Translations under genes and position numbers: made by a program
Virus record (IMG/VR): IMGVR_UViG_3300038974_000542
Location: 1 to 64,000 of that record
Length of the DNA stretch: 64,000 nucleotides
Source of the DNA: a virus
Taxonomy: Duplodnaviria > Caudoviricetes
Strand: one strand, 5' to 3'
Part shown: piece after piece, positions 24,827 through 54,889 of the stretch
Numbering within the stretch: the stretch's first letter is position 1
How the letters are laid out: the number at the start of each line of letters is the position of its first letter
The notes under the pieces: generated by a model
What the model saw: only the letters and a program-made list of their open reading frames with translations
Told to the model about the DNA's origin: nothing
Database searches by the model: none

Positions 24827-25809
24827 GAAATTTACAATATACTTCAATAGAAACAATCTTCTCTAAATTTCAAAGGGATTTAAGAGAAACAGATATCTCA
24901 GAAGCAGATATAGTTGAATGGACAGCTGAGGCTTTAGGTTTTATGAAGATTCCTGAAATACAAGAGGAAGCTGTTGCATTCATAGAGGTAGAGAATTATC
25001 AAGCTGATTTACCTTGTGGATTTCAAGGTGTTATACAAATAGCAAGAGATAATGAATGGACACCTTTGGATAAGGAATCAGGAACTACTGCTGCCGATGT
25101 TGTAGAGACTATGGAAGAACCTTCAGCTTCTGTACCTATAATAGTAGATTGTCAAGGTAATCTTGTAGGTGAGGCAGAATTGGCTTATTATAGACCTTAT
25201 TTTGATCTCAGGTATGAGTATGCAGCATGGTCAGGTTCTGGATATTACAGAGAAAGATTTACTCCTGTAAGACTTGCAAATCATAGTTTTATAGGTTCTC
25301 TTGTAGCAGAACTCAATAAAGAATATCCAAGTGGTATTTATAATAATTCTACTGATGAATATACTATTGCTGGTAGTTTTCCAAATCTTGTATTAAGATT
25401 TAGCTTTAAAGAGGGCTTTATTGCACTCTCTTATCTTAGAACAGCATTAGATGATACTACTGGTTATCCATTAATTCCAGATGATATAAGATTTATTACA
25501 GCTATTACTTACTATATTAAATGGAAGATGGCTGAAAGATTAAGATGGAATGGAAGAGAAGGTTTTGCAGCTGAGGCTCAAGATGCTGAAACTAAATGGA
25601 ATAAATATGTAAGACAAGCTCTTAATTATGCTAAGATGCCTAGTGGTATTGATCAGTATCAAAATTTTATGGAGAATAGTTTATACCTTATACCAAGAAC
25701 AAGAAAGTATTATGGTTATTTTGGAAAACTTGGTAGAGAAGAAGATAGATTATTTAATAACCCCGACATGAGAAGGAAATATAGCTTTAACAGATATGGC
25801 AGATGGTAA
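24823..25809 (+). CDS. Tail ring (tubular) protein
   Basis: EWTAEAL, GYPLIPDD...AITYYI, W..Y..QA motifs; directly upstream of the muzzle gene. Confidence 0.7.
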   Translation: MRNLQYTSIETIFSKFQRDLRETDISEADIVEWTAEALGFMKIPEIQEEAVAFIEVENYQADLPCGFQGVIQIARDNEWTPLDKESGTTAADVVETMEEPSASVPIIVDCQGNLVGEAELAYYRPYFDLRYEYAAWSGSGYYRERFTPVRLANHSFIGSLVAELNKEYPSGIYNNSTDEYTIAGSFPNLVLRFSFKEGFIALSYLRTALDDTTGYPLIPDDIRFITAITYYIKWKMAERLRWNGREGFAAEAQDAETKWNKYVRQALNYAKMPSGIDQYQNFMENSLYLIPRTRKYYGYFGKLGREEDRLFNNPDMRRKYSFNRYGRW

Positions 25810-32455: not shown

Positions 32456-32457
32456 CT

Positions 32458-37800: not shown

Positions 37801-40800
37801 ATTATATTGGTCCTAAAATTGCAGTTCCTGCAATAAAAGTTCCTTTTCCTGGAAATCCCTATAATGTAGTCTATAATAAAACAAAGAGTGGTTCTACTGA
37901 AGTTCTTTTCATAAGAGATAAAGAAGCAGAAACTAAGGAAGTCTTAAGTGGGGCAGCTGGATTAGAAGCTACTAAAAGAGCTTTTATGATGAACCCATTT
38001 CTGGCAAAAGCAGGTGTTCCTATACAGGTATATATCCCACCATTACAAGAATTACTTGATGATTCTAAAGGTTTTATAGTTTCTACTTGGACAAGAAAAG
38101 GTAAAGATGGTCCTTTAGAGAAGGGTACTGAATCTTTTTCAATATGGTATAATAGAGAAAAAGAAAAATTTGAAAAAGAAAATCCAGGTAAAGAATTTAT
38201 TGGTTCTGATAAATTTTTAGAAAAAGTCCCTATATTCTCTTATGTTGAGATTAATGGTGAAAGAGTACAGATAGGTTCTGCTATTCATGAAACTGCTTGG
38301 TGGAATGAACTTAATGTTGCTGATTTTAGAAACTCTGAAGATCTTAAGGCGGCTCTGAATTCTCCTAATGAAGAAGAGAGAGAGATAGCAAATCTTACAG
38401 CAAAATCAAGACAGCAAGCTGTAATTAATGAAGGAAGAGAACAAACACTTGAAGTTAGAAGAATTATATGGAATAATACAAATAAGGAAGATTGGAATGA
38501 TGGTATAGGTACTCTGGTTAAAATGAAAATCAAAGAGGTAACAGATGGCTTCTCACTTAAGATAGATCCTAAAGAACCTAAGAGAAAAATTAGGGAAGCT
38601 AATAATGATTTAAGACTTGGAATTATTTTAGTTGACAGCAATAAAAGTATCTCAGTAGCTTATGATTCAAAAAATGGAAAAGAAAGGTATATACCACAGA
38701 AATATATTTATAATCCTTCTGTACTTAGTGGAGATTATGTAGGATATGCTGTATCTCTTATTCCTTATGCTATACATGAAGATGGAAAACCTATGTATCT
38801 TGTTCAACTTGTAGATACAGGATATACTAATGCTCAGGAAACCTTAAAGTATCTTTATGATACGAGAGGTAAAATAAGACAGCTTAATCAGGATTATCAG
38901 ACTGCAAGAGCAAGAAATAATATCCCTGCAATGCAAAAGCTTGAAAAACAGCTTAAAGATATTATGACTGTTGCAGGTTTCTCTGAAGAAAAGATAAACA
39001 CTTATTTTAAACTTGAGGATAAAGATGCAAGGTATAAAATTCTAAGAGATAATCTTCTAAGATTTTATCCTAAAGAGACTGAACAAGGCAATCTTAAAAC
39101 ATCTTTTGAAAAAGATAATATTAGTGGGGATATTGCTAATATTGTAGTCTTTGATGAACAGGGAAATCCTAAAGTATATAAACCTAATCCAGAAAGTCAG
39201 GAATCCTCCTACGTTCAGATGCTAAAGGAAACTATTTATACTCAAAATGATTATATAGAAATAAGAGATTTAAGAAAAGAAGATCCAAATGCTACTATAA
39301 AAATAGCTAATGCTCAACCTAGAGTACATCTTGTTTTTGATGAAGAGGTTACTACTGAAAAATTAGAATTCAAAAGAAAAGAACTTGAACAAAGACAACA
39401 AGAAGAAGCTGAAGAAAAAAAGGAGGAAAATCTTGTTGCCACTTCAGAAGAAATTATACAAGATTCCCCAAAGTTTGAACTTACTCCTGAAAGAAAATAT
39501 ACTATTGTAAATCATCTTTTCAATAAAATACTCCAATCCTTTAAAGAAGATAAAACTTCAAGGAAGAATATTGCAATAGAAACAAGAAGAGCTATTGAAA
39601 CTCATCTTTCAGATTTAAAAGAAACCAATCCTGATTTATATAATGGTATTCTTGAGAATAAGGGTGAAATTTTAGGTCTTGGAGAATATAGAGATAAATC
39701 TCTCACTGTAAGAGAAGCCTTATTAAACCATTTTAATATGGAAACTCTTGAAGAAATGGATGATGTAGATTTAGATACAGAATCAGTTCTTGAAAAAGAT
39801 CATTCTAAAATTGCACAAGAATATGATGTAAAAACAAGTCTAAGCTCTAAGATAAAAAGAGTTTTCTCTGGAATACCTGTAAATGATAAGAATAGAAGAG
39901 GTGAATATATTGAAGGTATTACTGAATATATGGAACTTGATGATGTATTTTCTGCTTTACAGGATTTATTGTCTGATGTTCCAAATGATTTTACTGTACT
40001 TAAAGAGAGAGTAAGAGAGAGAATAAAATTAAATCCAGAAGAATTTGAATTCTTATCTTATATACAAGATATACTTGAAAATATTGATCCTCAACTTCAA
40101 CATGAAGTTCTTTTTAGACTTAATCAAACTAAGAATAGGATGTACTTTATTTATTCTAAAGAGAATAAAGGGAACTATGTATTACAAGTTTTAGATGCTA
40201 ACAGCAGACATCCTTTTATTTTTACTAAGAATACTATACTTGAACAATTTAAGAATTCTGATATAGTAGAAAATCTTGGAAATGGTGAGTACTCTCTTAA
40301 TAAAGAAAGAGCTCAAGAATTTATCAACATAGCAAATCTTATATCTAAATCTGGTAACATTGGCTATGAAACAATTAGAAACTTCTTTGCAACTGTAGGT
40401 ATTTACGTTGAGGAAAGTACTTTAGAAGCTATGGATAAGAATGATCCTGGAGCTTTTAGAAACATAGTTAAGAATCTTACAGAGCAATTAAAAAAGAATG
40501 TCATAGCATTAAAAGACTATACTAAACCTTTAAATTTTGATGAGAAAGTAGAAAATGTAGTTTTAAGAGAGAATAATAATTACTTGAATAACTTCATTGG
40601 AGAAATTATAAAATTTACTTTTAATGTTGATCAGTCAATGTATGTTGGTGGGAAAATAATTAATAGTTTTTCACAGCCAAATTTCTTTACTGAACAACTC
40701 AGAAAAATTTCTTCTTTGAAAGGTTCTGATTTAAGTCAAAATAATAAACATTTAATTAATAAGCTACTAAATAATGGTTATACAAAAAATAATCTTTTAG

Positions 40801-43800
40801 TAAAACTTATTACTCAAGTAGATGAGGAATTTGAAGAGCTTTTAAAAGAGTCAAAAGAAATTTTAGAAGAACTTAGTGTAGGATATACTTCTTTAGAAGT
40901 TTTAAAAAGAAAAGGTTTTAGAAGTAAGGACCAACAGATTACTGAACTTTCTCCCTCTGATTATGATACAGCTCTTATAGGATACTTTGGTAACATGGAT
41001 AAGAAGTTATCTGCTACAGAGAAAGGTATACCTTTAAGAATGTCCTATATGACTTCCCCTACATTATCAGATTCTTCCCAGATGTTTTTGATGAAAACTG
41101 TAGTACTGGATTTAAATAGAAGTCATTTTAAAATATCTAACAGTAATATAGATAGTTATAATAATACAGTAGCCGAGATTCTATATGAACAGTTGGTACT
41201 TCCTGAACTTACAAGAATGATTGAAGTTAAGGGTACTGAAAGAGATACTGTTGAAAATCAATTATTCTATGGTGTTCCAGCACTTAATAGTATAACTACT
41301 GCTGATGGAAAGAATATTCTCTATTATATCAGAGAAAATGATTTTGATACTGAGGAGATGTTATCCAAGATTAAAGAAAACTTTGGAGAAGCAATTAATA
41401 ATATTATCAGAAACGTTGTAAAAAATGAAGTAGAAGAAAAACTTAAAATAGATTCTGATGGAAACTTTTCTGGTAATTGGGTAAAGAATGGTTTTATCTA
41501 TAAAGAAAAAGATAAAGTAAAAGTAGAAGTTCTTGATACCAAATATCTTAACAGTAAAAATCCTGATGGTACACCTTTAAGTAAAGTAGAAACAGCTGCT
41601 TGGGAGTATGCTATAAACTATCTTGTTACACAAGCACAGATGCAAGCTTTATTTGCTGGAGATCCTGCCAATTATTCAAAAGCTAAAAGTAGTTTCTTTG
41701 AAAATAAGGATGTTGCAGTACCTAAAACAGAGAATAATACAGCTGAAGAAAAACTGAAAGTTTATATTGGAATTGCAGAAGAGACTTCTATAAATCTCTC
41801 TAAAAGATTAAAGGCTTTAATATCTCCAGGAAACAGGATTGCATACTCTGCAAGTAAACAGTATATTCAGTTAATGTTGCAAGATAGCTCTTCTATATCA
41901 GATGCTTATAAAGAATATTTAAAAGTATGGTATGGAAATATACCTTCTAATGATATGTCTATGGTTGATAGAGCCATTGAATTAAGTGAGAAAAAAAGAG
42001 ATTTTGAAGGAAAACTTAATCCTACAGAAGTAGAAAAAAAAGAATACTTGGCAGATCTTATAGAACTCTCGGATATAAAGAAGGATTTATCAAAGAAATA
42101 TCCTGAGGTATCTGGTTATCTGGAAAACATTGCTACTGATGCCCAAGAATATACTACTTGGAAAGAACATCTTGAAGTGGCTTATAATATGGGAAAAATT
42201 TCTGAAGAAGAGTATAATAATCTTAATAGAAAACTTACAGAGCAGTCAAAAGGAAATATTGAAGGTAATAGACTTTCTTCTGAAGAAAAATTTATATTTC
42301 AACCTATGAAGCCATTACACTCTGGAATGTATTTCAGAGGTATGAATAATGGTAAAACATATCAGGAATTTGTATATGTAAAAACTTCTTCATTTCCATT
42401 AATACCTGAAATGACTAAAGATCTGAAGATAGATAATCTCCGTAAAAATATGGAGAGACTTGAAGAAACTAAAGGTCTTACAGTAAGAGCAGCTTATGAA
42501 TCAGGTATTAAAGTAGGAAAAACCAAGACTTTAGCAAATACAAATCAACTTCTTGATAATGACAATGTTATTATTAGTGATAGTTTTTCTATATTAGATA
42601 GAGAGAATTTCTCTATACAACAAGAGAAACCTTTTAAAACTGATAAACATCTTGCTAATAATGAAAGAGATGAAATTGGTAGAGGTACTCAAATGGAAAA
42701 AATACTTCTATCTAATGGAATTAACAAAATATCAAGAAAGATATTCCCCAATATTTTTGGAAAAGAACTTCTTAGTAGATTAAATATTACTCCCGAAAAT
42801 GATAAAATATCTGGAGAAGATTTATACAAGATATATACAGATCTATCAATTACTGAGCAAAATCTCAAAAAAGACTTTTTCTTAAAATCTTTAGATGTAA
42901 ATGAAAATGACTACCAGATAGGTTCTGTTAGTTCTATGGAAAAACTCCAAGCTGCTCTAAATAAAAGATTAACTAATAGACAGGATAAAGAGATTTTGGA
43001 GCTTAAGTATTTTGTAAAAGATGAAGAAGGAAATGGAAAATACTATACTAAAGATGAAATAGAAGCTTTTAACCTCAAACCAGTATCTGCTGAATTTACA
43101 TTTCCAATCTGGTTATCTCCAAACTCAAGAAAGTTTGAGAGTGTATTAAACTCAATGATTACCAATGAGTTTATTAAACTTAAATTTCCTGGAAATTCTT
43201 CTCCTGTAGCCTCTGCAGAAGGTTTTGTATCTGTTAAAACTATAGAGGAACTTTCTCAAGAAGATGTTAATGGTATTGTATTTACAGACAGTTATAATGG
43301 TAAAGGACTTTTACCAGAAAGAGTTGAATATGGTATTGTAAAGCCAGCTCAAGTTCTTGTTGCTTCTAAGTTTAGAGTAAAAAGAAAAGTAAATGGGGAA
43401 TATATTGAGGAGATAATTGATTTCAATACTCCTGAATACATAAATCCTGAGACTAAAAGAATAGATAACAGTAAACTTCCTCCTGAAGTAAGACAACTGT
43501 TCTCTTTTCGTATTCCTTCTTCTGCACACCAGTCAGGTTCTTTGATTGAAATTGTAGGATTTTTACCACATCATATGGGAGATCTTATGATTGTTCCTAA
43601 AGAACATACAACTAAAATTGGAGAAGATTATGATATTGATGTAAGATATTCCTATAGTGGTAATTATGTAGTTAATGAAGACGGTTCTATAAGATTTCTA
43701 AGTGAAAAAGATGTACCTGTATACCCTAAAGAAGAGCTTGATAGAATATATAATGAATATAGAGATTACAAAGTTTCCTTAATTGAGTATATCAAAAAGA

Positions 43801-46800
43801 ATAGACCTAACAGTCCAAACAAAGAGAATGAAATTAGAAGCGAAATAGCTACTACTCAATTTCTTATTAATATATTGGAAGCTAAAGGTATTGATGAAAA
43901 TTCAGAAGAAATAGAAGCTCTTAATTTAGAACTTAATACTCTTATAGGGAGTCTTAATGAAAATAAAGAAGAGATAACTCCTGAAAGAAGAAAAGAAATT
44001 CAGGGTGAAATCAAAAACCTGCATGATAAGTTTCTTGAGGAGAAGAAATATAAAATTGAAGAGTATCTCAATGCAAGGAAGTTTTTTGGGACCAAACTGG
44101 CATCTATAGAGAATGAACTTATAAATCTTTATAAATCTGTATATTCCTCTACTGATAGTGAAATTCAGAGACTAATAACTACTACTATCAACACGGATAT
44201 GGCTCAAGAGACAGCCAAAATGATAGATACTAAAATTAAATCATCTCAAAAGAAAGACAACTTTACTATATATGGGTACGAACATCAGAAATCTACTCTA
44301 AGACTGGGGGCTTCTGGTAAACTTGGTATAGGGGTACACTCCAATTGGGTTGTATGGAATGGTCTTGTACAACAGTCTGAGAAAGAAATAGCTCTTATAG
44401 ATGATGGAGAACTATTCTCTATGAGAATAGGTAATTTCGTTTCTGATGGTAAACTTGGAAATATATATGCTCTAAGACCTAATTTAGAGAATGTCTCTGA
44501 AGATTATAAAAAGAGATATGAAAGTTTTAAGCCAAGAAGAATTTCTGATATAAATATGGAAAATCAGAATTCTGCTACTGATAATCAGAAGTTACAAATT
44601 ATGGGTAGAAGAAATGAGAACAAATATACTATTAATGTATTTGCTCTTATGAATAATCTTGGATTTGACAAGGATATTGTAGTTGTAAATGGTGAAGAAA
44701 GAGAAATACTTATTCCTTCTCTATTTATAAGTCAACCTATAATTAGAAGATATGTAGAACTTAAAGAACAATACTCTTCAACTTTTGCAGATTTTACAAG
44801 GGATATTGAATCAGTAATTACTGAGCAATTAAGGGTTGAATTCGCAAATAATGTAGAATTTCCTGTAGATCCTCTTACAAAAGAATTAATACCTTTTCTT
44901 GATACAGAGACAATGTCTAAAGTTTCTAAGGAACTTACAGGACAACTCTTATATGATAGTCTTGTGACTCCTTATAGTCAGATAACTCAATGGGCTGTAT
45001 ATCAAAAATTTGTAGAATTACAAGGACATTCAAATAATGTCAATAAGGTAATACAACTTATGAATATTGATAAAGGTCTTGGTGTATCTTATTTTAATAT
45101 TATCTCTAAGAAAAATTCTCTGATAGATGAGATGAACTCTATAAATCTCAATATTAGTAATGTAGAATTTTTATTCGGAGAAACTCCTCCTGAGCCTATT
45201 TATGACAATGAAGAATCTGCTGAAAAGATTAAGGAACTTTTGACACAAAATTATATTAAGATAGGTAAGGATGAAAATACAGGAGAAATCTTCTTAATGA
45301 AACCAAACAGCCCTAATAGTGCTAAATTACTAAATTCTATTTCAATAGGGTACTATTTATGGGGGAATATTTTTCCTTTTGAAAATAAATACTTAAAAGG
45401 TCAAATAGATGAGATCATAGGTGACAGACCTGAGATAGAAAGTACTATGGAGTTGAGATACAATATACTTTCTGCTATGAGAGAGTATATGTACTCTTCA
45501 AATATGTTTAACTTATATGATGGTATTGCTGATATAAATCAAGAGAGGAGGAGACTCTTAATGGATGAAGAGGGTAATGAATCTCTTGCAAGTTATCTTA
45601 TGAGATTAAAGAAATTGTCTACTACAGATGACACATTAAAAAATCTATTCAATAAGCATTTCTTTAGAAACTTAGAGTTTTCTATTAATAAGAAAGAACC
45701 TTCTATTATCAAATATAATGTAAATAGTAATAACTCTTTTAATAAAAATCTCCCACACTCAGAACTACTTCTGATGTCAGATTCCTTGATTGAACTTCCA
45801 GCTTATAATGGAGATGAAAACTACACTTATGAAAAGCTAGTTAAGGATCTTACCAAATATGCTATGCTTACAAATACAGAAAATGGAGCTATAGGATTTA
45901 GAAACTATATTCCAATGGCTGTATTTCAGAAGTATAATTTTGATAGTCAATTACATTATCTTGCAGATTTAAATACTGATAGTGGGAAATATTTTAATAT
46001 GACCTATAATGGTACTTTAAGTACTATTACATCTTTCTTAGGAAATAATGTTATAATAGAAGATGAGTCAGGAACTTATATTGAAGTTCCAGAAAAATTC
46101 TTATCTTCAAAGGAAATATTGGAGGAACTTATAGATAATGTAAATAGTAGCTTTGGATCTGAGAAGAAAGCTGTAGAACTTGACTCAAAGAGGGGTAGAG
46201 TAATTATTAACAGACCCTTAAGTGAAGTTAATAAGAGAAGATTTATAAGACAATTTTATCAACATAATCCTGAGCAAGCTACTAAACTTAGCTATAAAGA
46301 CTTAGGCATTAATAACAGAAATTTAATCAATAGTGTAAGTGAATTTGAATATACTTTCAAGGAGGAGATTCCTAACTATGTTTCAATAAAAGGAATTAAT
46401 GGTGAAGTATTTCTATATGAACTTGTAGAGACAGATATTAATAAGAGTAGCAAATACAGAAGAATTAATAAGTTAGGTGGATTTGGTGTTAATGAGTATA
46501 ATACTAATAGTGATGTTAATATCTCTATGTTTGACTCCAATAATCCAAAAATATCTGAGTTAAAACCTGTAGGTAAGAAGAAAGGGACAATTGGAAGAAA
46601 TGCTATCTTTAATCTCCCTACTACTCCTGAAGCTGCTATTACTATTAATGAAGTAATGACTATATTTGAGAACGCAGAACTTGACATAAACAATAAAGAA
46701 GTAATAACACTTAGTGGATTACTTGCAGATATTCAGAAATTTATAGATCCAAATACTAAAGTATATAAAGGACAATTAGAGAGTGGTTCTCCAGGAGCTT

Positions 46801-49800
46801 ATAACTCTAAGACTAATACAATTATATTAGACACTACACAATTCTCAAAAGATAGAAGAGTTAATGATTTATACAGAGTATTTTCTGAAGAAGTTTTCCA
46901 CTCCATTACAGCGAGAGAAGTAGATAAATATATAGTTGGTAATAATACTACTTTAGAGGTAGGTATTGACAGTGTTGAAGTAAAAGCAGATTATCTTACA
47001 GAAAATACCCCTGCTCATATTACAAAACTTGTGAGATTATATAAGACAGCAGCTGAAGCTTTAATTAAGGAAGAATCTCAGGAGAAAAATATCTCCTGGT
47101 CCCAAGCTTATGAAAATATCATTAAAAGGTATAAGGAAAATCCTACTAATACAGATGCTTATAGAATCTCTAATTTACATGAATTTATGGCGGGTATCTT
47201 TACCGATGATACTTTTAGAAGCAAAATGTCTAAAATTCAATTTAAAGATACTAATACATCTATCCTACAACAATTTGCAGACTTTGTAAGAAGAACTCTT
47301 CAATTTATTAGTGAAAGAATAGAAGGAAATATATCAGAGCAAACTTTGAGTACTGTATATGATTTTATATCTTCTATACATAATAATGTAGCCTCCTCTA
47401 AAGTTAAAACCACAAAAACTTTTGATGAAATGAGGAAGACAGATAATAAAGCTAAAGCTCTTGTTTCAGATCTTAAGAAGCCACTAACTTCAAGTTTATA
47501 TAGTAAATTATATAAGTCTGATAGGATTAAGTCTTTATCCCCTACCAATATAGTTTCTATACTAAATAAGAATAATAGAGAGGTTATTGCTCCTGAAGGT
47601 ATAATAACTGCAACTATTATAAATTCTGAAAGACATTTTGGAAATCCTTTTACCCCAAATCAAAGTACAAAAGATAAAAATCCTGGGATGGTTAAAGTGA
47701 AAGATACTCAGGAAGCGACTGAGAAATATATGAATTGGGTATTAAATGGAGGTCTTCCACAATTTGAAAACAGAAGACAGTGGATGCTTGAGCAATTTAA
47801 ATCTGGAAACTTAAAAGGTAAACCAATACTTGTAAATCAAGGAAGTGAGGATATATCCTACAATAATGCTATTGATTACTTCATTAATGAACACCAATGG
47901 AAACAAACTCAAAAACCCGTAGAAAAAATTCAAACTCAAACTAAATCTAATATTAAATTTGAAGAAGGAAATATTCTTGATTTATTCAAAGTGGAAACTC
48001 AGAATGAAACTATAAACATTTATGCAGGTACTAATGAAAATGCTGAGTTAAGTAATTTCGCAATAAGACCTTTTACAGTTAATGTAGAAACACCTTCTGG
48101 TGAAAAACAATACACTTTTCAAAGTGTAGAACAAGGGTTTCATTTTTACAAAGCTTTAGTAGCTAATAATCCACAAGTAGCTAAACAAATATTAGCAACT
48201 ACTAACGGAGGACAATTAAAAAGATTAACTAGAAGTAATCTTAAAATGACTCCTGAACAAGTTAAAGAGTGGGATGATACATCTAAAAGCATCATGTTAA
48301 ATCTAATGTATGAATCCTATGCTCAAAATCCAAAAGCTGCTTCAAAATTGTTGGCTACTGGCAATGCTAAAATAACTCACACACAAGATAACACAAGATG
48401 GAAAACAGATTTCCCTGAAGTTGTTATGACTGTAAGAGATATGTTGAGAGAAGAAGGTTTTGGTAATAACAATACTACTAAATTTGAAGAAGATCAATCT
48501 ACTGGCTATAAACAGAGAACAATTAAAAATGCTTCTGCTGATGCTACCATAGCTATTGCAGTTGATTTTAATAGTGCTGGAGAAATTCTTACTAAAAACT
48601 CTGTATTAAATCAAGGTAAAGTTTATATGCCTATAGATGGTAATAGACTTGAAGTTACAAAAGAAAGAGTAGATAAAATTGTTAATGCTCTTAACTCTAT
48701 AGGTAAAGATGAAATATCTCTTAATATAGCTGGTAATGGGATATATACTATGAGAGATAAATATACTCAAGAGCAAGTTGATAAATTTACCTATGATTTA
48801 CTTAAGGCTATTGTTGAGTCTTCTGATTTAAAAGTGAAAATTTCATCTATAAGAACTGGTGGACAAACAGGATTTGATGAGGCTGGTGCTAAAGCTGGTA
48901 TAAAATTAGGAATACCTGTTACTGTCTTAGCTCCCAAAGGTTGGAAATTTAGAGATATAAATGGAAAAGATATTTCAAATGAAAAACTTTTCAAAGAAAG
49001 ATTTAATAATGAGAACCAAAATGTTAAAGAACAGGGGAATGAAATAAAATCTACAGAAAAAAATGAAGATCCTAACAGAAATATTACAGGAAAGTCTAAA
49101 TTTAACTTTGCTCCAAAAGAAATTAAAAAAGAAGTTTTAGAACTGTTTGATTCCAATCCTAAGTTGGCTAATCAAGTATATAAAAAGTTTTTAGGGATTG
49201 ACCATGATTTTTCAATGGATTCATTTATGCCTAAAAAACATTGGAAAATAGGACATATTATAGACAACCCGACGGAAGCTGCAAATATATGTGATAATAC
49301 TCAAATAAAAGTATTAAATTATATTTTAAATAAATATGGCAAACCTTCAGAGAGAGGAACGTTTTATGCAAATCCTGTAACTATTTGGACAAAATCACCT
49401 ATAAATGATAAACAAATTTTTCATCATACAGTTGCTGTAAGATTAGAAGATGGTGTTTATTTATATGATATGCCACAATCTGAATTTATAGAATACATTT
49501 CAGAAAATGTAGGTAGAGTAATAAAAGAGTACTCTCCAAGATTAATAAAATATACACCTGAAAATTTAAAAAAATATTATGGAACTTCTGAAGAAAATCT
49601 ACATAAACAAGACTCTGTTATATTAACAGATGATTTAAAAATTATTCCTATTCAGGTAACTCCACAGCAAAAACAACAAGCAGTACAAAGTTATTCTGAA
49701 TATGTAGAACAAACAGGTAAGCGAGATATTGAAGGATTTAGACAGTTTGTAGATAAAACAATTCAAAAAAATCAAATAGAAAATAAAAAAGACATAGGTA

Positions 49801-49898
49801 AAGAAAATAATTATGTATCTGCTCCAAGAGAAATAAACTTAGATTTTAGTATCTTTACAGAATTAAAAGATGATATTTTTTCAAATTGTAGAAATTAA
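34848..49898 (+). CDS. Giant virion RNA polymerase polyprotein with accessory C-terminal domains
   Basis: Catalytic GEDYDID (DYDID at 43626-43640) preceded by FRIPSS...GFLP...GDLMIVP; crAss-like phages are known to package such two-barrel RNAPs. Confidence 0.92.
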   Translation: MIEKDGLKNYLQSLKSSEDNYKALERSKDVQDFIQQTDEATLETLGMPVKTGDMSKRYAKYSNIISPFIPQSEMEKQADILQGTGESWRNAVIGFGANTAAGFLDALGATVSPDKISNMFLGNTEKDFTNSLSRTANSIREWSNENIPIYNGNESMWTSAYWANQFSQLGTTAGIIGEGFVEQGVLALTTGGFGNVVGAGATATKVAKLLNRVKALNTANKVNRAGNYTFGMYQGVKEAYINGLENLNNVYQNYLQKGYSDEEARRVASEAASRSFKYEIGPVMFLNALQWGSIGSRYNPYSRKAVGGGISGFTESVFTKLAPKTTSKGVKKATDWAGNILSEGVEEGFQTAVQGISQYQADKERNLTKGTPLSDYIFTKELRDSVIGGMIGGGMFKALGSVRRGIIDGKDRKADERFIETFIDTTAERTKENLKKLDAAVKSGDTKAAEAIKKQMGFDNIEAALLFDYMKNDEKMTAYNAQVDQLKEISRIIKEGDIRGLELLELRNEKDENGENTFAYLRDNIDRMISDAELQKENHIKNLQLQMDLTGVENYDLAERTTRLQMMQNENNRTLEKRKESLDSLFNIERNATNNEDILEYKKLQSLVTAYNSTTTKFSNPEIQKEVTEAKERIETLERDNPSFMFDEKEYENKQLIDVQSDILKIREANFEINKDIKQLTTNQGINEYRRDQIRQSILDYDQINSTTKLNSIKETLQKDEEINKYFSKKEIEKISKGIDNRISKLQSIEKAQAAEKLRKNNEVIKTKTKPIITPEGKLNTEVVTDDKIQKEVQINIDKIDKIRNNTSVGIVEDARSLIENSKDIPEDSFVLFQEQEENIFFEAPREFNDRNSIVRGNMKKGATNFLKRNKDATLKDYITAFINTPGVEVGDVEALYYYIADGYYEAKDQRYSDNREEVEEVYRDIFEPFNALQLIQDNINLVPETKPTPSEQVEIEKKIDTTIVEKQIEKAQPVKVDKNGRNIYYIGPKIAVPAIKVPFPGNPYNVVYNKTKSGSTEVLFIRDKEAETKEVLSGAAGLEATKRAFMMNPFLAKAGVPIQVYIPPLQELLDDSKGFIVSTWTRKGKDGPLEKGTESFSIWYNREKEKFEKENPGKEFIGSDKFLEKVPIFSYVEINGERVQIGSAIHETAWWNELNVADFRNSEDLKAALNSPNEEEREIANLTAKSRQQAVINEGREQTLEVRRIIWNNTNKEDWNDGIGTLVKMKIKEVTDGFSLKIDPKEPKRKIREANNDLRLGIILVDSNKSISVAYDSKNGKERYIPQKYIYNPSVLSGDYVGYAVSLIPYAIHEDGKPMYLVQLVDTGYTNAQETLKYLYDTRGKIRQLNQDYQTARARNNIPAMQKLEKQLKDIMTVAGFSEEKINTYFKLEDKDARYKILRDNLLRFYPKETEQGNLKTSFEKDNISGDIANIVVFDEQGNPKVYKPNPESQESSYVQMLKETIYTQNDYIEIRDLRKEDPNATIKIANAQPRVHLVFDEEVTTEKLEFKRKELEQRQQEEAEEKKEENLVATSEEIIQDSPKFELTPERKYTIVNHLFNKILQSFKEDKTSRKNIAIETRRAIETHLSDLKETNPDLYNGILENKGEILGLGEYRDKSLTVREALLNHFNMETLEEMDDVDLDTESVLEKDHSKIAQEYDVKTSLSSKIKRVFSGIPVNDKNRRGEYIEGITEYMELDDVFSALQDLLSDVPNDFTVLKERVRERIKLNPEEFEFLSYIQDILENIDPQLQHEVLFRLNQTKNRMYFIYSKENKGNYVLQVLDANSRHPFIFTKNTILEQFKNSDIVENLGNGEYSLNKERAQEFINIANLISKSGNIGYETIRNFFATVGIYVEESTLEAMDKNDPGAFRNIVKNLTEQLKKNVIALKDYTKPLNFDEKVENVVLRENNNYLNNFIGEIIKFTFNVDQSMYVGGKIINSFSQPNFFTEQLRKISSLKGSDLSQNNKHLINKLLNNGYTKNNLLVKLITQVDEEFEELLKESKEILEELSVGYTSLEVLKRKGFRSKDQQITELSPSDYDTALIGYFGNMDKKLSATEKGIPLRMSYMTSPTLSDSSQMFLMKTVVLDLNRSHFKISNSNIDSYNNTVAEILYEQLVLPELTRMIEVKGTERDTVENQLFYGVPALNSITTADGKNILYYIRENDFDTEEMLSKIKENFGEAINNIIRNVVKNEVEEKLKIDSDGNFSGNWVKNGFIYKEKDKVKVEVLDTKYLNSKNPDGTPLSKVETAAWEYAINYLVTQAQMQALFAGDPANYSKAKSSFFENKDVAVPKTENNTAEEKLKVYIGIAEETSINLSKRLKALISPGNRIAYSASKQYIQLMLQDSSSISDAYKEYLKVWYGNIPSNDMSMVDRAIELSEKKRDFEGKLNPTEVEKKEYLADLIELSDIKKDLSKKYPEVSGYLENIATDAQEYTTWKEHLEVAYNMGKISEEEYNNLNRKLTEQSKGNIEGNRLSSEEKFIFQPMKPLHSGMYFRGMNNGKTYQEFVYVKTSSFPLIPEMTKDLKIDNLRKNMERLEETKGLTVRAAYESGIKVGKTKTLANTNQLLDNDNVIISDSFSILDRENFSIQQEKPFKTDKHLANNERDEIGRGTQMEKILLSNGINKISRKIFPNIFGKELLSRLNITPENDKISGEDLYKIYTDLSITEQNLKKDFFLKSLDVNENDYQIGSVSSMEKLQAALNKRLTNRQDKEILELKYFVKDEEGNGKYYTKDEIEAFNLKPVSAEFTFPIWLSPNSRKFESVLNSMITNEFIKLKFPGNSSPVASAEGFVSVKTIEELSQEDVNGIVFTDSYNGKGLLPERVEYGIVKPAQVLVASKFRVKRKVNGEYIEEIIDFNTPEYINPETKRIDNSKLPPEVRQLFSFRIPSSAHQSGSLIEIVGFLPHHMGDLMIVPKEHTTKIGEDYDIDVRYSYSGNYVVNEDGSIRFLSEKDVPVYPKEELDRIYNEYRDYKVSLIEYIKKNRPNSPNKENEIRSEIATTQFLINILEAKGIDENSEEIEALNLELNTLIGSLNENKEEITPERRKEIQGEIKNLHDKFLEEKKYKIEEYLNARKFFGTKLASIENELINLYKSVYSSTDSEIQRLITTTINTDMAQETAKMIDTKIKSSQKKDNFTIYGYEHQKSTLRLGASGKLGIGVHSNWVVWNGLVQQSEKEIALIDDGELFSMRIGNFVSDGKLGNIYALRPNLENVSEDYKKRYESFKPRRISDINMENQNSATDNQKLQIMGRRNENKYTINVFALMNNLGFDKDIVVVNGEEREILIPSLFISQPIIRRYVELKEQYSSTFADFTRDIESVITEQLRVEFANNVEFPVDPLTKELIPFLDTETMSKVSKELTGQLLYDSLVTPYSQITQWAVYQKFVELQGHSNNVNKVIQLMNIDKGLGVSYFNIISKKNSLIDEMNSINLNISNVEFLFGETPPEPIYDNEESAEKIKELLTQNYIKIGKDENTGEIFLMKPNSPNSAKLLNSISIGYYLWGNIFPFENKYLKGQIDEIIGDRPEIESTMELRYNILSAMREYMYSSNMFNLYDGIADINQERRRLLMDEEGNESLASYLMRLKKLSTTDDTLKNLFNKHFFRNLEFSINKKEPSIIKYNVNSNNSFNKNLPHSELLLMSDSLIELPAYNGDENYTYEKLVKDLTKYAMLTNTENGAIGFRNYIPMAVFQKYNFDSQLHYLADLNTDSGKYFNMTYNGTLSTITSFLGNNVIIEDESGTYIEVPEKFLSSKEILEELIDNVNSSFGSEKKAVELDSKRGRVIINRPLSEVNKRRFIRQFYQHNPEQATKLSYKDLGINNRNLINSVSEFEYTFKEEIPNYVSIKGINGEVFLYELVETDINKSSKYRRINKLGGFGVNEYNTNSDVNISMFDSNNPKISELKPVGKKKGTIGRNAIFNLPTTPEAAITINEVMTIFENAELDINNKEVITLSGLLADIQKFIDPNTKVYKGQLESGSPGAYNSKTNTIILDTTQFSKDRRVNDLYRVFSEEVFHSITAREVDKYIVGNNTTLEVGIDSVEVKADYLTENTPAHITKLVRLYKTAAEALIKEESQEKNISWSQAYENIIKRYKENPTNTDAYRISNLHEFMAGIFTDDTFRSKMSKIQFKDTNTSILQQFADFVRRTLQFISERIEGNISEQTLSTVYDFISSIHNNVASSKVKTTKTFDEMRKTDNKAKALVSDLKKPLTSSLYSKLYKSDRIKSLSPTNIVSILNKNNREVIAPEGIITATIINSERHFGNPFTPNQSTKDKNPGMVKVKDTQEATEKYMNWVLNGGLPQFENRRQWMLEQFKSGNLKGKPILVNQGSEDISYNNAIDYFINEHQWKQTQKPVEKIQTQTKSNIKFEEGNILDLFKVETQNETINIYAGTNENAELSNFAIRPFTVNVETPSGEKQYTFQSVEQGFHFYKALVANNPQVAKQILATTNGGQLKRLTRSNLKMTPEQVKEWDDTSKSIMLNLMYESYAQNPKAASKLLATGNAKITHTQDNTRWKTDFPEVVMTVRDMLREEGFGNNNTTKFEEDQSTGYKQRTIKNASADATIAIAVDFNSAGEILTKNSVLNQGKVYMPIDGNRLEVTKERVDKIVNALNSIGKDEISLNIAGNGIYTMRDKYTQEQVDKFTYDLLKAIVESSDLKVKISSIRTGGQTGFDEAGAKAGIKLGIPVTVLAPKGWKFRDINGKDISNEKLFKERFNNENQNVKEQGNEIKSTEKNEDPNRNITGKSKFNFAPKEIKKEVLELFDSNPKLANQVYKKFLGIDHDFSMDSFMPKKHWKIGHIIDNPTEAANICDNTQIKVLNYILNKYGKPSERGTFYANPVTIWTKSPINDKQIFHHTVAVRLEDGVYLYDMPQSEFIEYISENVGRVIKEYSPRLIKYTPENLKKYYGTSEENLHKQDSVILTDDLKIIPIQVTPQQKQQAVQSYSEYVEQTGKRDIEGFRQFVDKTIQKNQIENKKDIGKENNYVSAPREINLDFSIFTELKDDIFSNCRN

Positions 49899-49909
49899 AT
49901 ATAAATAAT

Positions 49910-52900
49910 ATGGCTTGTAATGTAGTTGAATTAGCCACAGTAAATTTTTTAGAAAAAGAAGGTTACATAAGATGGCATGAAGTAGATGGTTATCCTGGAG
50001 AATACAGAATACCGAAGAATAAAGTAGAGAAGACAAGAAAAGCTATTAAGGAATTGACTATAGCTGCAAGAAAATATGGGGTAACTAATCCTTCTCAAAT
50101 GTTTCATATAGTAGAAAAGCCTTATAATTTAACTCCTGGGACTTCAGAAAGAGTAGATAATATGATTGCTAAAGGAATTACTTCCTACTATGTATTAGAG
50201 GAAGATATACCTTTTGTTACAGAGTTTCAAGAGAAGTTTGATAGATTTCAAGAAGAGAGAAAAGTAGTACAAAGTAAGATTGATTTTGATGCTCCATTAA
50301 AAGATAAAATTAAGATAATGTTCAGTAATAATCCAGAGTTTTTTGACATAGGAAGTCAAGAAGATTATTTAGAGTATCTTAAAGCAACCAATAAAGGAGA
50401 TGTAGTAAATGAGAATGATTTTGAGGACTTTCAGAAATTTGTTGAGAATAGAAATAGAGAAATTCAATCTGAGGAAGATTTTAGAAGATACACTATGAAT
50501 GCTCCTGGTTCTTATACTAATACAAGAACAGGAGAAACTGTAGATACTACAAATCTTGCTGCTAATTCTGCTTATGTAAATTCTAAGAGACAATTATTAG
50601 AAAATCTAAAGACCCATTTAGAGGATTACTATAAACTTAATAAAGGAAAAGAACATACAGAACTTTATAAAAAAAGGGTCAAGGAATTAAATGAGGTAAT
50701 TAATGAAGTATCTGATGAACTTAGTTTACTTACAGCTACAGATGCCAAGACAATATTCAGAAGTGTTATTAATGAAATAGAAATACTTTCAGAGATATTG
50801 GATAATCCTGATACTTTTAATGCAGAAAATTTTGAGCTTATTCAAAGATTAAATATACTATCTAATTTAATTCTAGGTCAGAATATTGATGGAACATCTA
50901 TTATAGGTGATAGAATAATGTTTAATGGAGAAGGTATTGAAGGTTTTAATGACTATGTTGTTGAACCTATGACTAAACTTAAACTTAAATATGATGACTA
51001 TCTATATAATGTAGCTGAGAATGCTTTCCTTAATAATCCTATCTTCATAGAAAACAGAGATAAGTTTACAGATGAACAAATACAAGAGATGTTGAAAAGT
51101 ATTAGAGAAAAAGGCAATGATATAAATTTTTTTCAGGCCTACTTTTTAGGAGTAAATTCTAATGCTGATTCTATATTGTTTAAAACTGTAAATGATTTAT
51201 TACAGACTAATGTAAGAAAAGTAGAACAGTCTATAGGTAAAAAAGAGAGAGCTCTTTCAGAAGTTCAGGAAAGACTTAGAAAAAAGAAGTTTGATATTGA
51301 TAAATTCTATGCTAAAGATGAGAATGGTATTAAAACAGGAAGATTAATCTCTAAGTATACAGCTAAATGGTTTAGAAGTATAAATGTTCTTCAGAACTTA
51401 AAAAAGGAATTTGATTCTGCACATAATCAACTAAAACCACAAAAATATAAAGAGATTGTATCTTGGTATGACAACAATGTTTCTTTTATAGATATAAGAA
51501 AACTAAAAGTCTTTAAAGATAGGTATTCAGAAGGATATGGGAAATACTTTAAGTTCTCTGATGAAGAGATGACCCAATATGAAAAATGGTTGAGAGAAGA
51601 GTTAGGAAAAGGTTATGATGAAGCTATAGAAGCTCAGATGGAGAACATAGAAAGATTTATATCTTATAGTCTCTCTGAGAGTGATAAAAATACTATTTGG
51701 ACTCAAAAAAATATTTCTGCTGCAAGCCCTTTCAAATTTTTGGAAAATTATGATAGCAAGAATAAAAGAAATGCTATACCTACTGTTGTAGGAAGCCAGA
51801 CTACAAGTGTTTTTAATATAGGTAAATATAATCACTTTATTCCAAAGAGATATATTGTGGATAAAACTACAGAGGACCTAATAGATAATGAATATTATGA
51901 CAAGATCTTCGAAAAAGATATTGAGTCTGACCCTGATGCTTATGAAGCTCAAAGATTACTTCAAGATCTACTCTCAAATCATATTAATCCAGCTTACAGC
52001 CTTAATGGTAATGTTATATCTTCTCTTCAAATTCCTATGTTAAGAAAAGAGTTTAGTGAAACTTGGGCAGAATCTAAAAGGAAAGGTATTTTATCATTGA
52101 TAAAAGCAATGGTACATAATGTTATAAATAACTGGAAGGATATTTGGTTTGATCAAACTTATAGTTCTGATAGGAAAGGTGTTGTAGCTAATTACTCTAA
52201 TGCAGCTCTAAGAGAAATAAATAACTATAAAAGAGTACTTCAATTAAAATCTTTAGAAGACCTTCTAAAAAAAGCAGATGAATTGGGTCTTCATTTTAAA
52301 TCAAATGAAACTAAGGATAGAATAATAGATGGAATTGCAAGAGCTGAAGTGTTACCAGAATTCTCTAATGACATATTTCAAAATGTACTTACAGTATCCT
52401 CTTATGCTACCTTACACAGGGCAAGACAAGACACTTCTTTTATTGCAGAATTATTATATAAGGTACATATTAAGCCAAACTTAGATGGTAAAGTAAGGGA
52501 GTTATCCAGTAAGAAATTTAGAGCTTGGATAGACACCAATGTATATGGAAAAAGAAATGAAAAATCTCAAGAAAATAACGTAATTACTAAAGCAAACTTG
52601 AAAAGACTCTCTGATGCCGATAAAAAATTAAAGAAGGTTCTTCAAGAAATTAATGCTGATAATCTTGGAGAGGATGTTGTTTTTTATTTGGATGGTATCA
52701 GATATACTTCCAGATTAGATGATAATAATAACAGAGAATTTGTAGCTATTAAAGAGAATGAATCTGAAGAGGGTTCTGAATATAAAATTATAAGTTCTGA
52801 AGAATTTGAGGAGAAGCTTGATACTTATCTAAAAAATCAAATAGATAATTTGGGGATATCTATGACTTTTAGTAGTTTAGTTAGTGGAGTTCTACATAAT

Positions 52901-54889
52901 CTTTCTATAAAATTTTTAGGTTTTAATATCAAATCAGGTATAAAAAATAGAATTGAGGGTGCTGTAATGAATTCTATTATAGATGCTGAAGGAACTAAAT
53001 GGACAAGAGGTAATAACAGAAATTCTACAAGAATACTTTCTTTAGCAAATATTTTTAGATTATCTAATGGTAAACTTGATAATATTGCAAGAAAAAAAGC
53101 TCTGCAATTAAAGACTATAGATCAACTTGTTCAAAGACTTGGAGTACTTCAGGATAGAAAAGATTTTAGAGACAAGAAAAATCAAGTTTCTGCCTATGAT
53201 AAATATAAGGATTTTTTAGATGTATATAATTTTGCAATAGGTATGCCAGAGTACAGAAATCAGGTTGAAATTGTTCTCAATATACTTCAAGATCAAAAAA
53301 TTACTAATTATAAAGGAGAAACTGTAAGTTTTGTAAATGGTACAGGTATTGTAAAAGATTCTGAAGGAAGAGTAATTGAAACAGGACAATATATGTCTGC
53401 ATATATCCCTGGAACTCTCACACTTAAAGATGAATATAAATATACAGCTGAGGCTTTTAATGAGGATGGTACTTTAAAAGATAATATAAATTTGAATGAC
53501 TATATTAATATGGATAATATTGGATATGAGACATTTCAAGTTTTTGATGCTATTGGTGGTAAAACCGAAGGTAGTAATGCTATACATCTTATAAATGAAA
53601 AAATTCAGGATACTATTAATAAGACCCAGGGTAACTTTTCAAGTATGGATAGTATTCTTGTTATGAGGAGTACTTTGGGAAGATTTGCTATGTTTTTTAA
53701 AAGATATTTACCTGAACTTGTAAACCAAAGATTTGGAACTTTTGGAAATGATATTATTCAAGGAAAATATAAATCCGAAGGTAGATATAGAGTACTCTTC
53801 AGAAATCCTGGTGCTTTAGGTGTATTTGCTTCTACAGTTGCTACTGTATTTTTCGGACCACTTATAGGTGGAGGATTTCTAGCTACAGCATTTCTTCCTT
53901 ACTTATTCCACAGTGTTTCAAATAGATGGTTTAATCGTGAGATTAATGTAAGTTTAGCAGATAATCTTGAAGAATCTGTGGGGATGTTGAAAGAAATTTT
54001 AATAAGAACTATGGATTTCCCTTTGGGAATAGTACATTCTAAGTGGAGATTCAGAGATATAAAATCTCTTGGAGATAATCAGTTTTTTGAAAAACTCAAA
54101 GATAAAGAAGTACTTACAGAAGATGAGGCTGGAGCTTTAATAGCTTGTGCTGAGGAGATAGCTATAACTATAGGAAGTATGTTATTTATAATGTTGGCTA
54201 AGAATGCCTTTGGTGGTGGAGATGATGATGATGAAGATAAAAAGCAACTTAGAAATTTTATTGACAATTATGGAAACCAGATTATGAGTAACTTAACACA
54301 ATTCTATGATCCAGTAGGTTTTGTTAAAGACAACTTTTCAAGACTTGTATTATTTTCTACATTAGAGGATACTGAAAAATTTCTAACTGCTTTTAGAAAG
54401 TATATTGACTATGATGAAGGTACTCTAAGGGAAGTCACTATGAAGGGTCTCAAGGCACAACCTCTTGTACCTATAATTAATTTCGCAGCTAAACCTATTG
54501 AGGTTGGAGATATTTCAGGTATTTGGAAAGACGAAAAAGAATATGATTCTGGACAGTGGTTTGATAAGGTTGTAAAATCTAAAGAGGCAATTTCGAAGGA
54601 AAAACTCACTAACAGAAGAGAATCTTTGAAGAAAAAATATATTGATTTACTTTCTGATAGATATAGGGAAGAATTAGGTTTTAGTAAATCTGAGGCAGAT
54701 GTAGTAGCAGAAAAGACAGCTAGGAAGATGATGAATAATCCTGAAATTTCAAGGCAATATAGAGAAGGTGAAACCTTTGAGGATGCCTTAGAAAGAATAG
54801 ATTTCAAAGAGGCTACTAAATTAGCTGAGGAAGCTGTAGCTGAAGTTGAGTTAGAAGAACCAGAAGAGGAAGAAGAAACTACAGAATAA
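49910..54889 (+). CDS. Large virion cargo protein downstream of the RNAP
   Basis: 1659-aa helical protein with a hydrophobic segment near the C-terminus; last gene of the late operon. Confidence 0.7.
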   Translation: MACNVVELATVNFLEKEGYIRWHEVDGYPGEYRIPKNKVEKTRKAIKELTIAARKYGVTNPSQMFHIVEKPYNLTPGTSERVDNMIAKGITSYYVLEEDIPFVTEFQEKFDRFQEERKVVQSKIDFDAPLKDKIKIMFSNNPEFFDIGSQEDYLEYLKATNKGDVVNENDFEDFQKFVENRNREIQSEEDFRRYTMNAPGSYTNTRTGETVDTTNLAANSAYVNSKRQLLENLKTHLEDYYKLNKGKEHTELYKKRVKELNEVINEVSDELSLLTATDAKTIFRSVINEIEILSEILDNPDTFNAENFELIQRLNILSNLILGQNIDGTSIIGDRIMFNGEGIEGFNDYVVEPMTKLKLKYDDYLYNVAENAFLNNPIFIENRDKFTDEQIQEMLKSIREKGNDINFFQAYFLGVNSNADSILFKTVNDLLQTNVRKVEQSIGKKERALSEVQERLRKKKFDIDKFYAKDENGIKTGRLISKYTAKWFRSINVLQNLKKEFDSAHNQLKPQKYKEIVSWYDNNVSFIDIRKLKVFKDRYSEGYGKYFKFSDEEMTQYEKWLREELGKGYDEAIEAQMENIERFISYSLSESDKNTIWTQKNISAASPFKFLENYDSKNKRNAIPTVVGSQTTSVFNIGKYNHFIPKRYIVDKTTEDLIDNEYYDKIFEKDIESDPDAYEAQRLLQDLLSNHINPAYSLNGNVISSLQIPMLRKEFSETWAESKRKGILSLIKAMVHNVINNWKDIWFDQTYSSDRKGVVANYSNAALREINNYKRVLQLKSLEDLLKKADELGLHFKSNETKDRIIDGIARAEVLPEFSNDIFQNVLTVSSYATLHRARQDTSFIAELLYKVHIKPNLDGKVRELSSKKFRAWIDTNVYGKRNEKSQENNVITKANLKRLSDADKKLKKVLQEINADNLGEDVVFYLDGIRYTSRLDDNNNREFVAIKENESEEGSEYKIISSEEFEEKLDTYLKNQIDNLGISMTFSSLVSGVLHNLSIKFLGFNIKSGIKNRIEGAVMNSIIDAEGTKWTRGNNRNSTRILSLANIFRLSNGKLDNIARKKALQLKTIDQLVQRLGVLQDRKDFRDKKNQVSAYDKYKDFLDVYNFAIGMPEYRNQVEIVLNILQDQKITNYKGETVSFVNGTGIVKDSEGRVIETGQYMSAYIPGTLTLKDEYKYTAEAFNEDGTLKDNINLNDYINMDNIGYETFQVFDAIGGKTEGSNAIHLINEKIQDTINKTQGNFSSMDSILVMRSTLGRFAMFFKRYLPELVNQRFGTFGNDIIQGKYKSEGRYRVLFRNPGALGVFASTVATVFFGPLIGGGFLATAFLPYLFHSVSNRWFNREINVSLADNLEESVGMLKEILIRTMDFPLGIVHSKWRFRDIKSLGDNQFFEKLKDKEVLTEDEAGALIACAEEIAITIGSMLFIMLAKNAFGGGDDDDEDKKQLRNFIDNYGNQIMSNLTQFYDPVGFVKDNFSRLVLFSTLEDTEKFLTAFRKYIDYDEGTLREVTMKGLKAQPLVPIINFAAKPIEVGDISGIWKDEKEYDSGQWFDKVVKSKEAISKEKLTNRRESLKKKYIDLLSDRYREELGFSKSEADVVAEKTARKMMNNPEISRQYREGETFEDALERIDFKEATKLAEEAVAEVELEEPEEEEETTE

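Follow-up and report, generated by a model that had tools for sequence, protein, structure and literature searches.

A putative crAss-type virion polymerase protein with a tail of exchangeable NADAR, SLOG and Cys-His-Asp cassettes, a candidate counter-defence cargo

Introduction

Why would a phage extend the protein that bears its virion RNA polymerase with a row of several unrelated enzymatic domains, and could such an extension act on the host ahead of all phage gene expression? The question is raised by the IMG/VR virus record IMGVR_UViG_3300038974_000542, of which positions 1 to 64,000 were analyzed here (64,000 nucleotides, hereafter the window, which makes up most of the 84-kb record). 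The window holds a giant open reading frame (ORF) of 5016 amino acids (aa) on the plus strand (34848–49898, from the ORF list and its translation), which reads as a crAss-type virion cargo protein with an RNA polymerase and a C-terminal effector tail composed of a DUF4326-like module, a NADAR, a SLOG domain and a module with an ordered Cys-His-Asp triad (hereafter the CHD module). The interpretation we favour, with moderate confidence, is that the ORF encodes a cargo protein which bears the RNA polymerase and is packaged in the virion of a crAss-like phage of Bacteroidota, and that it has acquired a ~775-aa 'polyvalent' tail of exchangeable cassettes, probably to blunt host immunity at entry.

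The most abundant phages of the human gut are among the Crassvirales, and we know of no account of how these phages handle host immunity in the opening seconds of an infection. A tail ejected along with the polymerase would amount to a pre-made, ADP-ribose-removing kit that needs no gene expression and, with the same cassettes present in hundreds of related giant proteins, such equipment would then be common in the group. Among packaged enzymes, T4 Alt is the classic example. Multi-enzyme polyvalent proteins have been predicted to be delivered with the genome (Iyer, Burroughs, Anand, de Souza and Aravind 2017; PMC5512222), virion-packaged NADAR, Macro and Nudix proteins as well as DUF4326-SLOG-Macro-NADAR fusions have been described (Iyer et al. 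2022; PMC9503650), and AdfN (T4 gp30.3) is a phage NADAR that defeats DarTG1 (Johannesman, Carlson and LeRoux; 10.1101/2024.07.11.602962). The first-pass annotation of this DNA had put the tail forward as its best candidate for an undescribed system, a claim that falls in view of these publications; because the general idea was already in print, the gain lies in the carrier, the scale and a new module, and not in the principle.

Results

The carrier and its C-terminal extension

The body of the giant ORF matched phrog_16227, annotated as 'virion structural protein' (Fpv1 gp33, 4401 aa; E 7.7e-123), and the gene is set among muzzle and cargo genes. The motif DYDIDV (43626–43643, plus strand; residues 2927–2932) corresponds in position to the catalytic DxDxD motif known from virion RNA polymerases of the crAss type. 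When the 501 residues around it (2700–3200) were searched with tblastn, they matched phi14:2 g066, annotated as 'catalytic RNA polymerase subunit' (31% over 113 aa, E 1e-6), and also crAssphage KP06_gp44; a phmmer search of residues 1501–4184 against the PDB sequences gave no match. The motif and these two matches support the view that the carrier is a crAss-type virion polymerase protein, merged here with its neighbours into one huge protein, in agreement with the earlier proposal that a virion RNA polymerase carries the tail. Fusion of neighbouring polymerase-associated proteins was previously described for some crAss-like phages (10.1101/2020.03.07.982082).

The tail was likewise proposed to be fused onto the polymerase protein, and the comparison with Fpv1 gp33 agrees, as gp33 stops where the extension starts: the alignment reaches about residue 4175, and gp33 itself ends ~70 aa further, which equals residue ~4240 of the giant ORF. 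The last 832 aa of the ORF matched none of 29 Flavobacterium phage records. Residues ~4240–5016 (~775 aa; 47565–49895, plus strand) are therefore extra, and the tail is an add-on to the crAss-type virion polymerase protein.

Nearest to the giant ORF is P0002 (4845 aa), which shares 58.7% identity over residues 65–4373 and is encoded on a syntenic, crAss-like contig of 85.7 kb, where it adjoins CrAss_Ring_2 and crAss_MUZ genes. It has no NADAR, and an ADP-ribosyltransferase (ART)-like core stands at the place of our CHD module. At the DNA level, the giant ORF (34848–49898) and the P0002 locus (L007:10001–24538) form a mosaic, with ~70% identity in the body, 86.8% in the SLOG stretch (48483–49128), 95% in the last 181 bases (49718–49898) and no DNA alignment whatever in the NADAR and CHD stretches, a pattern that suggests recent cassette recombination. 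The conserved C-terminal end of the protein (49752–49895, plus strand) shares 93% protein identity with P0002.

As a separate observation on the carrier body, a zincin reading of EEVFHSITA (46887–46913) was rejected, as the motif is not HExxH (Glu in place of the first His). P0002, P0067 and Fpv1 gp33 (EVIHTVT) nevertheless keep it, and a true HExxH occurs near similar text in some distant carriers (HELLH in P0150, HEYAH in P0148).

Module content of the tail

All four modules named by the first-pass annotation lie in one ORF, in frame, in the order it gave and at coordinates close to its own. A phmmer search of the tail against the PDB returned weak matches only (YbiA, E 0.028; 3imk, E 0.26). 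PADLOC reported only the NADAR-type candidate model PDC-M42C, and the NCBIfam match to riboflavin N-glycosidase stayed below its cut-off. Checked module by module with profile and fold comparisons, as the annotation had suggested, NADAR and SLOG scored above their Pfam cut-offs and the DUF4326-like module was recognized through hhalign together with AF2 and BFVD.

The NADAR cassette (47997–48461, plus strand; residues 4384–4538), identified with Pfam and delimited from the 90% identical copy in another giant protein (P0014), matched PF08719 at 48033–48392 (E 5.3e-16, 59.7 bits vs. a cut-off of 35.1; 63.8 bits in a six-frame search). The match spans positions 8–125 of the 163 in the profile, with divergence in the C-terminal part. 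SVEQGFHFYK (48123–48152) contains Glu4428 and Lys4435 at the +7 spacing, and both are invariant in 24 homologues; Glu and Lys at this spacing are essential in T4 AdfN (E36/K43; 10.1101/2024.07.11.602962) and in Phytophthora PnNADAR (E43/K50; PMC11543638). His4511 lies in KITHTQD (48369–48389) and belongs to a last-strand 'TH' pair that is invariant in the same number of homologues. It aligns with the His of T4 gp30.3/AdfN, and a His at that last-strand position is a hallmark of phage-type NADARs (PMC11125620). As the position of the YbiA Glu is taken by Thr here, the window NADAR is of the His type. By alignment it carries the Glu/Lys/His active-site set, and the domain call stands.

The SLOG module (48483–49013, plus strand; residues 4546–4722; Pfam and PHROG) holds the motif GGQTGFD at 48858–48878 (residues 4671–4677). 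It matched Pfam cpYpsA (PF12694; E 1.7e-8, 34.8 bits vs. a cut-off of 26.2), in a match confined to positions 44–125 of that profile, and phrog_10774 (E 6.9e-27, at about 48486–48983), in agreement with the SLOG/YpsA-like reading of the annotation. Against PDB 3imk the two halves align in swapped order (query 476–514 to chain 3–41, query 358–445 to chain 51–136), and we therefore name it a YpsA-clade SLOG and assert no circular permutation. Twenty free-standing phage proteins of ~180 aa span exactly this module, and 47 columns are invariant in the 21 sequences, including GGQTGFDE; in more than 100 other giant proteins the module is ~70% identical. Among 185,579 GTDB species genomes a search with the SLOG alignment found five loci, all on contigs of metagenome-assembled genomes (MAGs) from unrelated phyla, and a search with the single sequence found nothing. 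These five are probably phage contigs; judging from the sequences, the family is nearly exclusive to phages and is very strongly conserved.

The CHD module (49218–49652, plus strand) belongs to an unnamed family. It had no Pfam, PHROG or PDB sequence match, and a full scan of 1.84 billion representatives returned 46 relatives; among viral contigs, close relatives were found at 3 loci. In an alignment of 24 sequences, Cys4815 (49290–49292), a Thr, His4859 (49422–49424), a Tyr, Asp4874 (49467–49469) and a P-Q-x-E motif are invariant. The AF2 model (pLDDT 88, pTM 0.83) places the Cys (module residue 46) in a helix (39–61) and the His and Asp (residues 90 and 105) in strands (87–97 and 100–105; DSSP). 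When this model was compared with solved structures using VIA, transglutaminase/papain-like enzymes with a Cys-His-Asp triad made up nearly all of the top rows (Z 5.0–3.6), headed by LapG (Z 5.0, rmsd 3.4, 98 aligned), TglA (4.5) and protein-glutaminase (4.3) and including arylamine N-acetyltransferase, SpvD, PMT-C3, NTAQ1 and SseI. The kind of match is consistent, and the scores themselves (Z 5.0 or less) are within the range of chance arrangements. Foldseek found nothing at E ≤ 0.001 in PDB or BFVD (best E 0.066). A lead from the ESM Atlas pointed to the SseI/Tox-PLDMTX family, and Pfam searches of ten relatives gave no family for the module and a sub-threshold transglutaminase-like hint in P0137 only. 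Because the fold scores are weak, the transglutaminase/papain-like fold is probable and not proven: of the 'papain-like' reading proposed earlier, the invariant ordered triad and the kind of structural match speak for it, and the low Z scores and the lack of a significant Foldseek match do not.

The DUF4326-like module (47586–47885, plus strand; RHFGNPF at 47631–47651) has a Pfam match to DUF4326 (PF14216; E 0.014, 16.4 bits) that is under the cut-off of 25, and the corresponding modules of P0002, P0005, P0010, P0026 and P0032 had no Pfam DUF4326 match either. A profile built from the window module and seven relatives (A2) aligned in hhalign with P0266 (98.6% probability, E 9.4e-16, 95 columns), a DUF4326-SLOG fusion that itself scores 26.1 bits against the same cut-off. 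The AF2 model (pLDDT 74) was compared with BFVD using Foldseek, and the named matches were almost all DUF4326 (probability 1.00, TM 0.54–0.59); in the ESM Atlas, used as a lead only, the three best named clusters were also DUF4326. The sub-cut-off Pfam score together with these matches therefore identifies, at the level of sequence profile and model, a divergent DUF4326 relative. The annotation's call is thus retained as to homology and fold, with the qualifications that its Pfam score stays under the cut-off and that a conserved His is replaced: Tyr4338 in EDISYNNAI (ISYNNAI at 47853–47873) stands where all seven relatives and P0266 keep His (...EPSHATAL...). DUF4326 was proposed to strip terminal phosphates from ADP-ribose breakdown products (PMC9503650). 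A search of viral contigs found no close relatives of the module, and a word-index search found no free-standing DUF4326-like proteins of 85–273 aa.

Two further observations concern this module. Compared with 48,161 solved chains of the PDB using VIA, its model (47535–47897) gave uninformative scores (Z 3.4 or less), and the weak matches include two NADAR structures (8bau, Z 2.9; 2b3w, i.e., YbiA, Z 2.7), which may be chance or may reflect a distant likeness between DUF4326 and NADAR. In P0147 (852 aa) the DUF4326-like module is present in two pieces (residues 251–309 and 573–610), and the domain inserted between them begins ...IFVFGSNPEGRHGAGAAK..., with a Rossmann-like nucleotide-binding signature.

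Spread of the cassettes and the slot arrangement

A survey of C-terminal variation among related RNA polymerases had also been suggested. When residues 4230–5016 were searched against proteins of 2758–8778 aa (E ≤ 1e-3), there were 642 giant-protein matches. Among the best 119 of the 642, the cassettes are shuffled: SLOG is present in 106, NADAR in 23, the DUF4326-like module in 10 and CHD in 3, at varied positions and in varied orders. The motif D[FY]DxD occurs in 111 of these 119, and 62 align with the body of our protein over the catalytic site, which is why we take most carriers to be crAss-type polymerase proteins. For instance, cr10_1 has a polymerase region with a SLOG near the C-terminus, and Bacteroides phage PhiCrAssBcn1 has a SLOG at residues 86–258 of a 2608-aa 'putative RNA polymerase'. 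Among the other domains of giant relatives are ART-PolyVal, Zeta/AAA_33 kinase and PIF1-type helicase, and a further 636 shorter proteins contain the cassettes.

The limits of the cassettes are the limits of the domains. The NADAR is 90% identical in P0014, the body of which has no detectable homology to ours, and the SLOG is 94% identical in a diverged carrier. The cassettes are thus bounded modules that recur with 60–90% identity in hundreds of giant, mostly DxDxD-bearing proteins and in free-standing phage proteins.

A recurrent slot is visible with the order A-X-B-ART-C, in which A is F-x-S-N-P-E-L, B is QQKQQA, the ART-like core contains ...VYHG... and C is DIEGFxxFV. The position X is held by CHD in P0015, P0020 and the window, and by NADAR in P0014. 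In the window, flank A (FDSNPKL, 49146–49166) lies in a linker (49116–49217, plus strand) recognized from the same flank in P0011, P0014, P0015 and P0002, where it precedes CHD, NADAR or ART cassettes. Flanks B and C enclose an ART-like core in P0002, P0003, P0014, P0020, P0124 and P0131; the window holds the remnant of such an ART-PolyVal cassette (49665–49751, plus strand, identified from the flanks in relatives), with B (QQKQQA, 49665–49682) joined almost directly to C (DIEGFRQFV, 49725–49751) and the core missing. No ART-PolyVal match was found anywhere in the 84-kb record. The next gene (49910–54889) has A (FSNNPEF) and C (DFEDFQKFV) near its start (50318–50446) with nothing between them.

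Discussion

Proposed function and rival explanations

If the favoured reading holds, the tail would accompany the polymerase into the cell, either preceding the DNA or together with it, would then refold, and would act before the expression of any phage gene. The NADAR would cleave N-glycosidic ADP-ribose linkages, with guanine-ADP-ribose on DNA or soluble ADP-ribose derivatives as substrates; the SLOG would bind or hydrolyse an ADP-ribose-derived nucleotide, and the CHD module would be a thiol hydrolase that releases the modules by cleavage or modifies a protein of the host. In polyvalent proteins, release was ascribed to metallopeptidases (PMC5512222). We infer that the tail travels with the polymerase because homologous cargo proteins of PhiCrAss001 are packaged: its polymerase-associated proteins were found in virions by mass spectrometry and were modelled as ejected cargo, partly unfolded, ahead of the DNA (PMC10172136). 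The annotation of Fpv1 gp33 as a virion structural protein points the same way.

Several points weigh against this reading, beginning with the fact that packaging of the tail and its delivery into the host are argued by analogy with PhiCrAss001. Trimming of a polyvalent protein may precede its packaging, P1 DdrB being an example (PMC5512222). The fold scores of the CHD module are low, as described above. The DUF4326-like copy may be inactive and, because its conserved His is replaced by Tyr and the ART core between flanks B and C is gone, parts of the tail may be decaying.

The supply of DNA adducts in the host is a further point of this kind. We sampled 401 genomes from the phylum to which a Bacteroidales MAG belongs, the presumed phylum of the host, and 34 of them contain DarT (PF14487). 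Each of the six best loci (L020–L025, Bacteroidota) is followed by a ~355-aa Macro-domain protein, i.e., a DarTG2-type pair, and five further loci have no adjacent NADAR, so that a DarT1-NADAR pair was present in 0 of the 11 Bacteroidota loci inspected. Thymine adducts made by DarTG2 are not reversed by NADARs (PMC11125620), and the targets of phage NADARs and SLOGs were argued to be mostly soluble ADP-ribose derivatives and not DNA adducts (PMC9503650). Given the Macro-linked DarT loci and the missing DarT1-NADAR pair, we lean towards soluble ADP-ribose derivatives as the targets of NADAR and SLOG, a DNA target appearing less likely. DarT1 and Thoeris systems are putative targets. At one of the six Macro-linked loci, a sub-threshold SocA/Panacea match was seen in addition.

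The same modules might instead do housekeeping for transcription and RNA, dealing with RNA-repair by-products of the ADP-ribose 1''-phosphate type, NAD-derived 5' ends or template lesions. Their fusion to a polymerase in most carriers would fit, as would the published links of NADAR, Macro, 2H and KptA to RNA repair and the phosphate-removing role proposed for DUF4326 on ADP-ribose breakdown products (PMC9503650). However, the place of the cassettes within giant proteins is not fixed and they also exist as genes of their own, Pfam revealed no RNA ligase or KptA in the tail, and P0002 combines the same polymerase with no NADAR, which means that the polymerase needs none; we consider this explanation unlikely. 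Less likely again is a role as self-antidote, in which NADAR and SLOG would contain an ADP-ribosyltransferase (ART-PolyVal) that the phage itself injects. This genome has no ART-PolyVal match and its NADAR is intact nonetheless, P0002 has an ART-like core with no NADAR, and few giant carriers have both (precomputed Pfam annotation, among the matches listed), even if the NADAR of P0014 occupies the slot directly upstream of the ART-like core, P0003 is arranged as NADAR-SLOG followed by an ART-like core, and ART-YbiA and DarT-NADAR toxin-antitoxin pairs exist (PMC11125620).

A further alternative is that the tail is a recombination scar of shuffled cassettes, functionless in this phage, and the replaced His of the DUF4326-like copy, the ART core deleted between its flanks and the 'empty' slot in the next gene speak for it. 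Yet the tail reading frame is open over 2.3 kb, the invariant residues of NADAR, SLOG and CHD are all intact, and the SLOG and NADAR are 94% and 90% identical, respectively, to copies in diverged or unrelated carriers, so we give passenger decay very little credence. A counter-defence role at entry thus remains the reading we favour. A more elaborate form of it is doubtful and is offered here as speculation: the slot system A-X-B-ART-C of crAss-type ejected proteins would swap pre-packaged counter-defence enzymes, with NADAR, ADP-ribosyltransferase and the CHD family among them, between unrelated phages, the CHD module would be a thiol peptidase that is activated in the cytoplasm and frees the modules, and NADAR and SLOG, tethered to the polymerase, would remove lesions or signals made of ADP-ribose at the incoming genome even before transcription starts.

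Being small, with sharp limits and high conservation, the cassettes should be amenable to direct expression and assay. The SLOG family, with its 47 invariant columns, and the unnamed CHD family appear to be good targets in the search for new anti-defence activities.

Relation to known systems

The protein resembles the polyvalent proteins (PMC5512222) in being giant, in lying in the virion or late gene block, and in combining several unrelated enzymatic domains that are shuffled between proteins. It differs in its carrier, as the polymerase there is an N4-like virion polymerase and the one in the window is a two-barrel polymerase of the crAss type; furthermore, the main text of that study is without SLOG, YbiA/NADAR or thiol peptidase, and the window protein itself has no PolyVal-named Pfam domain. 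With the viral NAD+/ADP-ribose network (PMC9503650) it shares three domain families in one polypeptide of a DNA virus as well as the prediction of an early counter to ADP-ribose-derived immune signals. In that network, by contrast, packaging was described mainly for myoviruses and through MuF/portal fusions, NADAR was present in ~1% of non-myoviruses and crAss-like phages are unmentioned, while the window protein lacks the Macro domain of the published fusions and adds the CHD module. T4 AdfN belongs to the same NADAR fold family, with the Glu/Lys pair at +7 and a last-strand His at the position of Glu in YbiA and of Asp in DarG1; nevertheless, identity to it is 22% (pairwise E 0.014), it counters DarTG1, for which the 11 DarT loci gave no DarT1-NADAR pair, and it is a free, early-expressed protein, whereas the window NADAR is a module of a virion protein.

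Among crAss-like phages, the polymerase and cargo proteins (phi14:2 gp66; PhiCrAss001 gp47, gp49 and gp50; PMC10172136, 10.1101/2020.03.07.982082) have the DxDxD motif, the gene order after muzzle and cargo genes and the fusion of neighbours in common with the giant ORF, but these papers describe no enzymatic effector tails on them. The CHD module is like the transglutaminase/papain-like enzymes (LapG, protein-glutaminase, arylamine N-acetyltransferase, the PMT-C3/SseI deamidases, NTAQ1) in having the Cys in a helix followed by His and Asp on consecutive strands 15 residues apart, and unlike them in its lack of sequence-family membership, its Z scores of 5.0 or less and its own invariant T, Y and P-Q-x-E. 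The conserved flanks around interchangeable effectors and the DNA identity mosaic over the junctions recall polymorphic toxins (PMC3482391), from which the window protein differs in being a phage virion protein with internal as well as terminal slots and no evident immunity gene. Nothing relevant came up when the literature was searched for crAss-like phages in connection with NADAR, SLOG, YbiA or polyvalent proteins. The elements that are new, in that no paper describing them was found, are the crAss-type polymerase as carrier, the scale on which it is used, the CHD family, and a slot that swaps NADAR, CHD and ADP-ribosyltransferase cassettes.

Genome context

The window also contains genes for a terminase (3913–6063), a portal (6096–8507), a major head protein (9712–11181) and a crAss muzzle-type protein (25796–30793). 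The head protein shares 72% identity with those of the Flavobacterium psychrophilum phages Fpv1 and FpV4. From these genes the phage is classified as crAss-like, with a host most likely in Bacteroidota; the host assignment is based on the head-protein similarity. The cultured phages nearest to it are those of Flavobacterium psychrophilum. Between the muzzle gene and the giant ORF (30824–34851) there are two genes of 543 and 797 aa, in the positions of the PhiCrAss001 cargo proteins gp45 and gp46. The 797-aa gene had no PHROG match, and the 543-aa gene upstream of the giant ORF matches phrog_15413.

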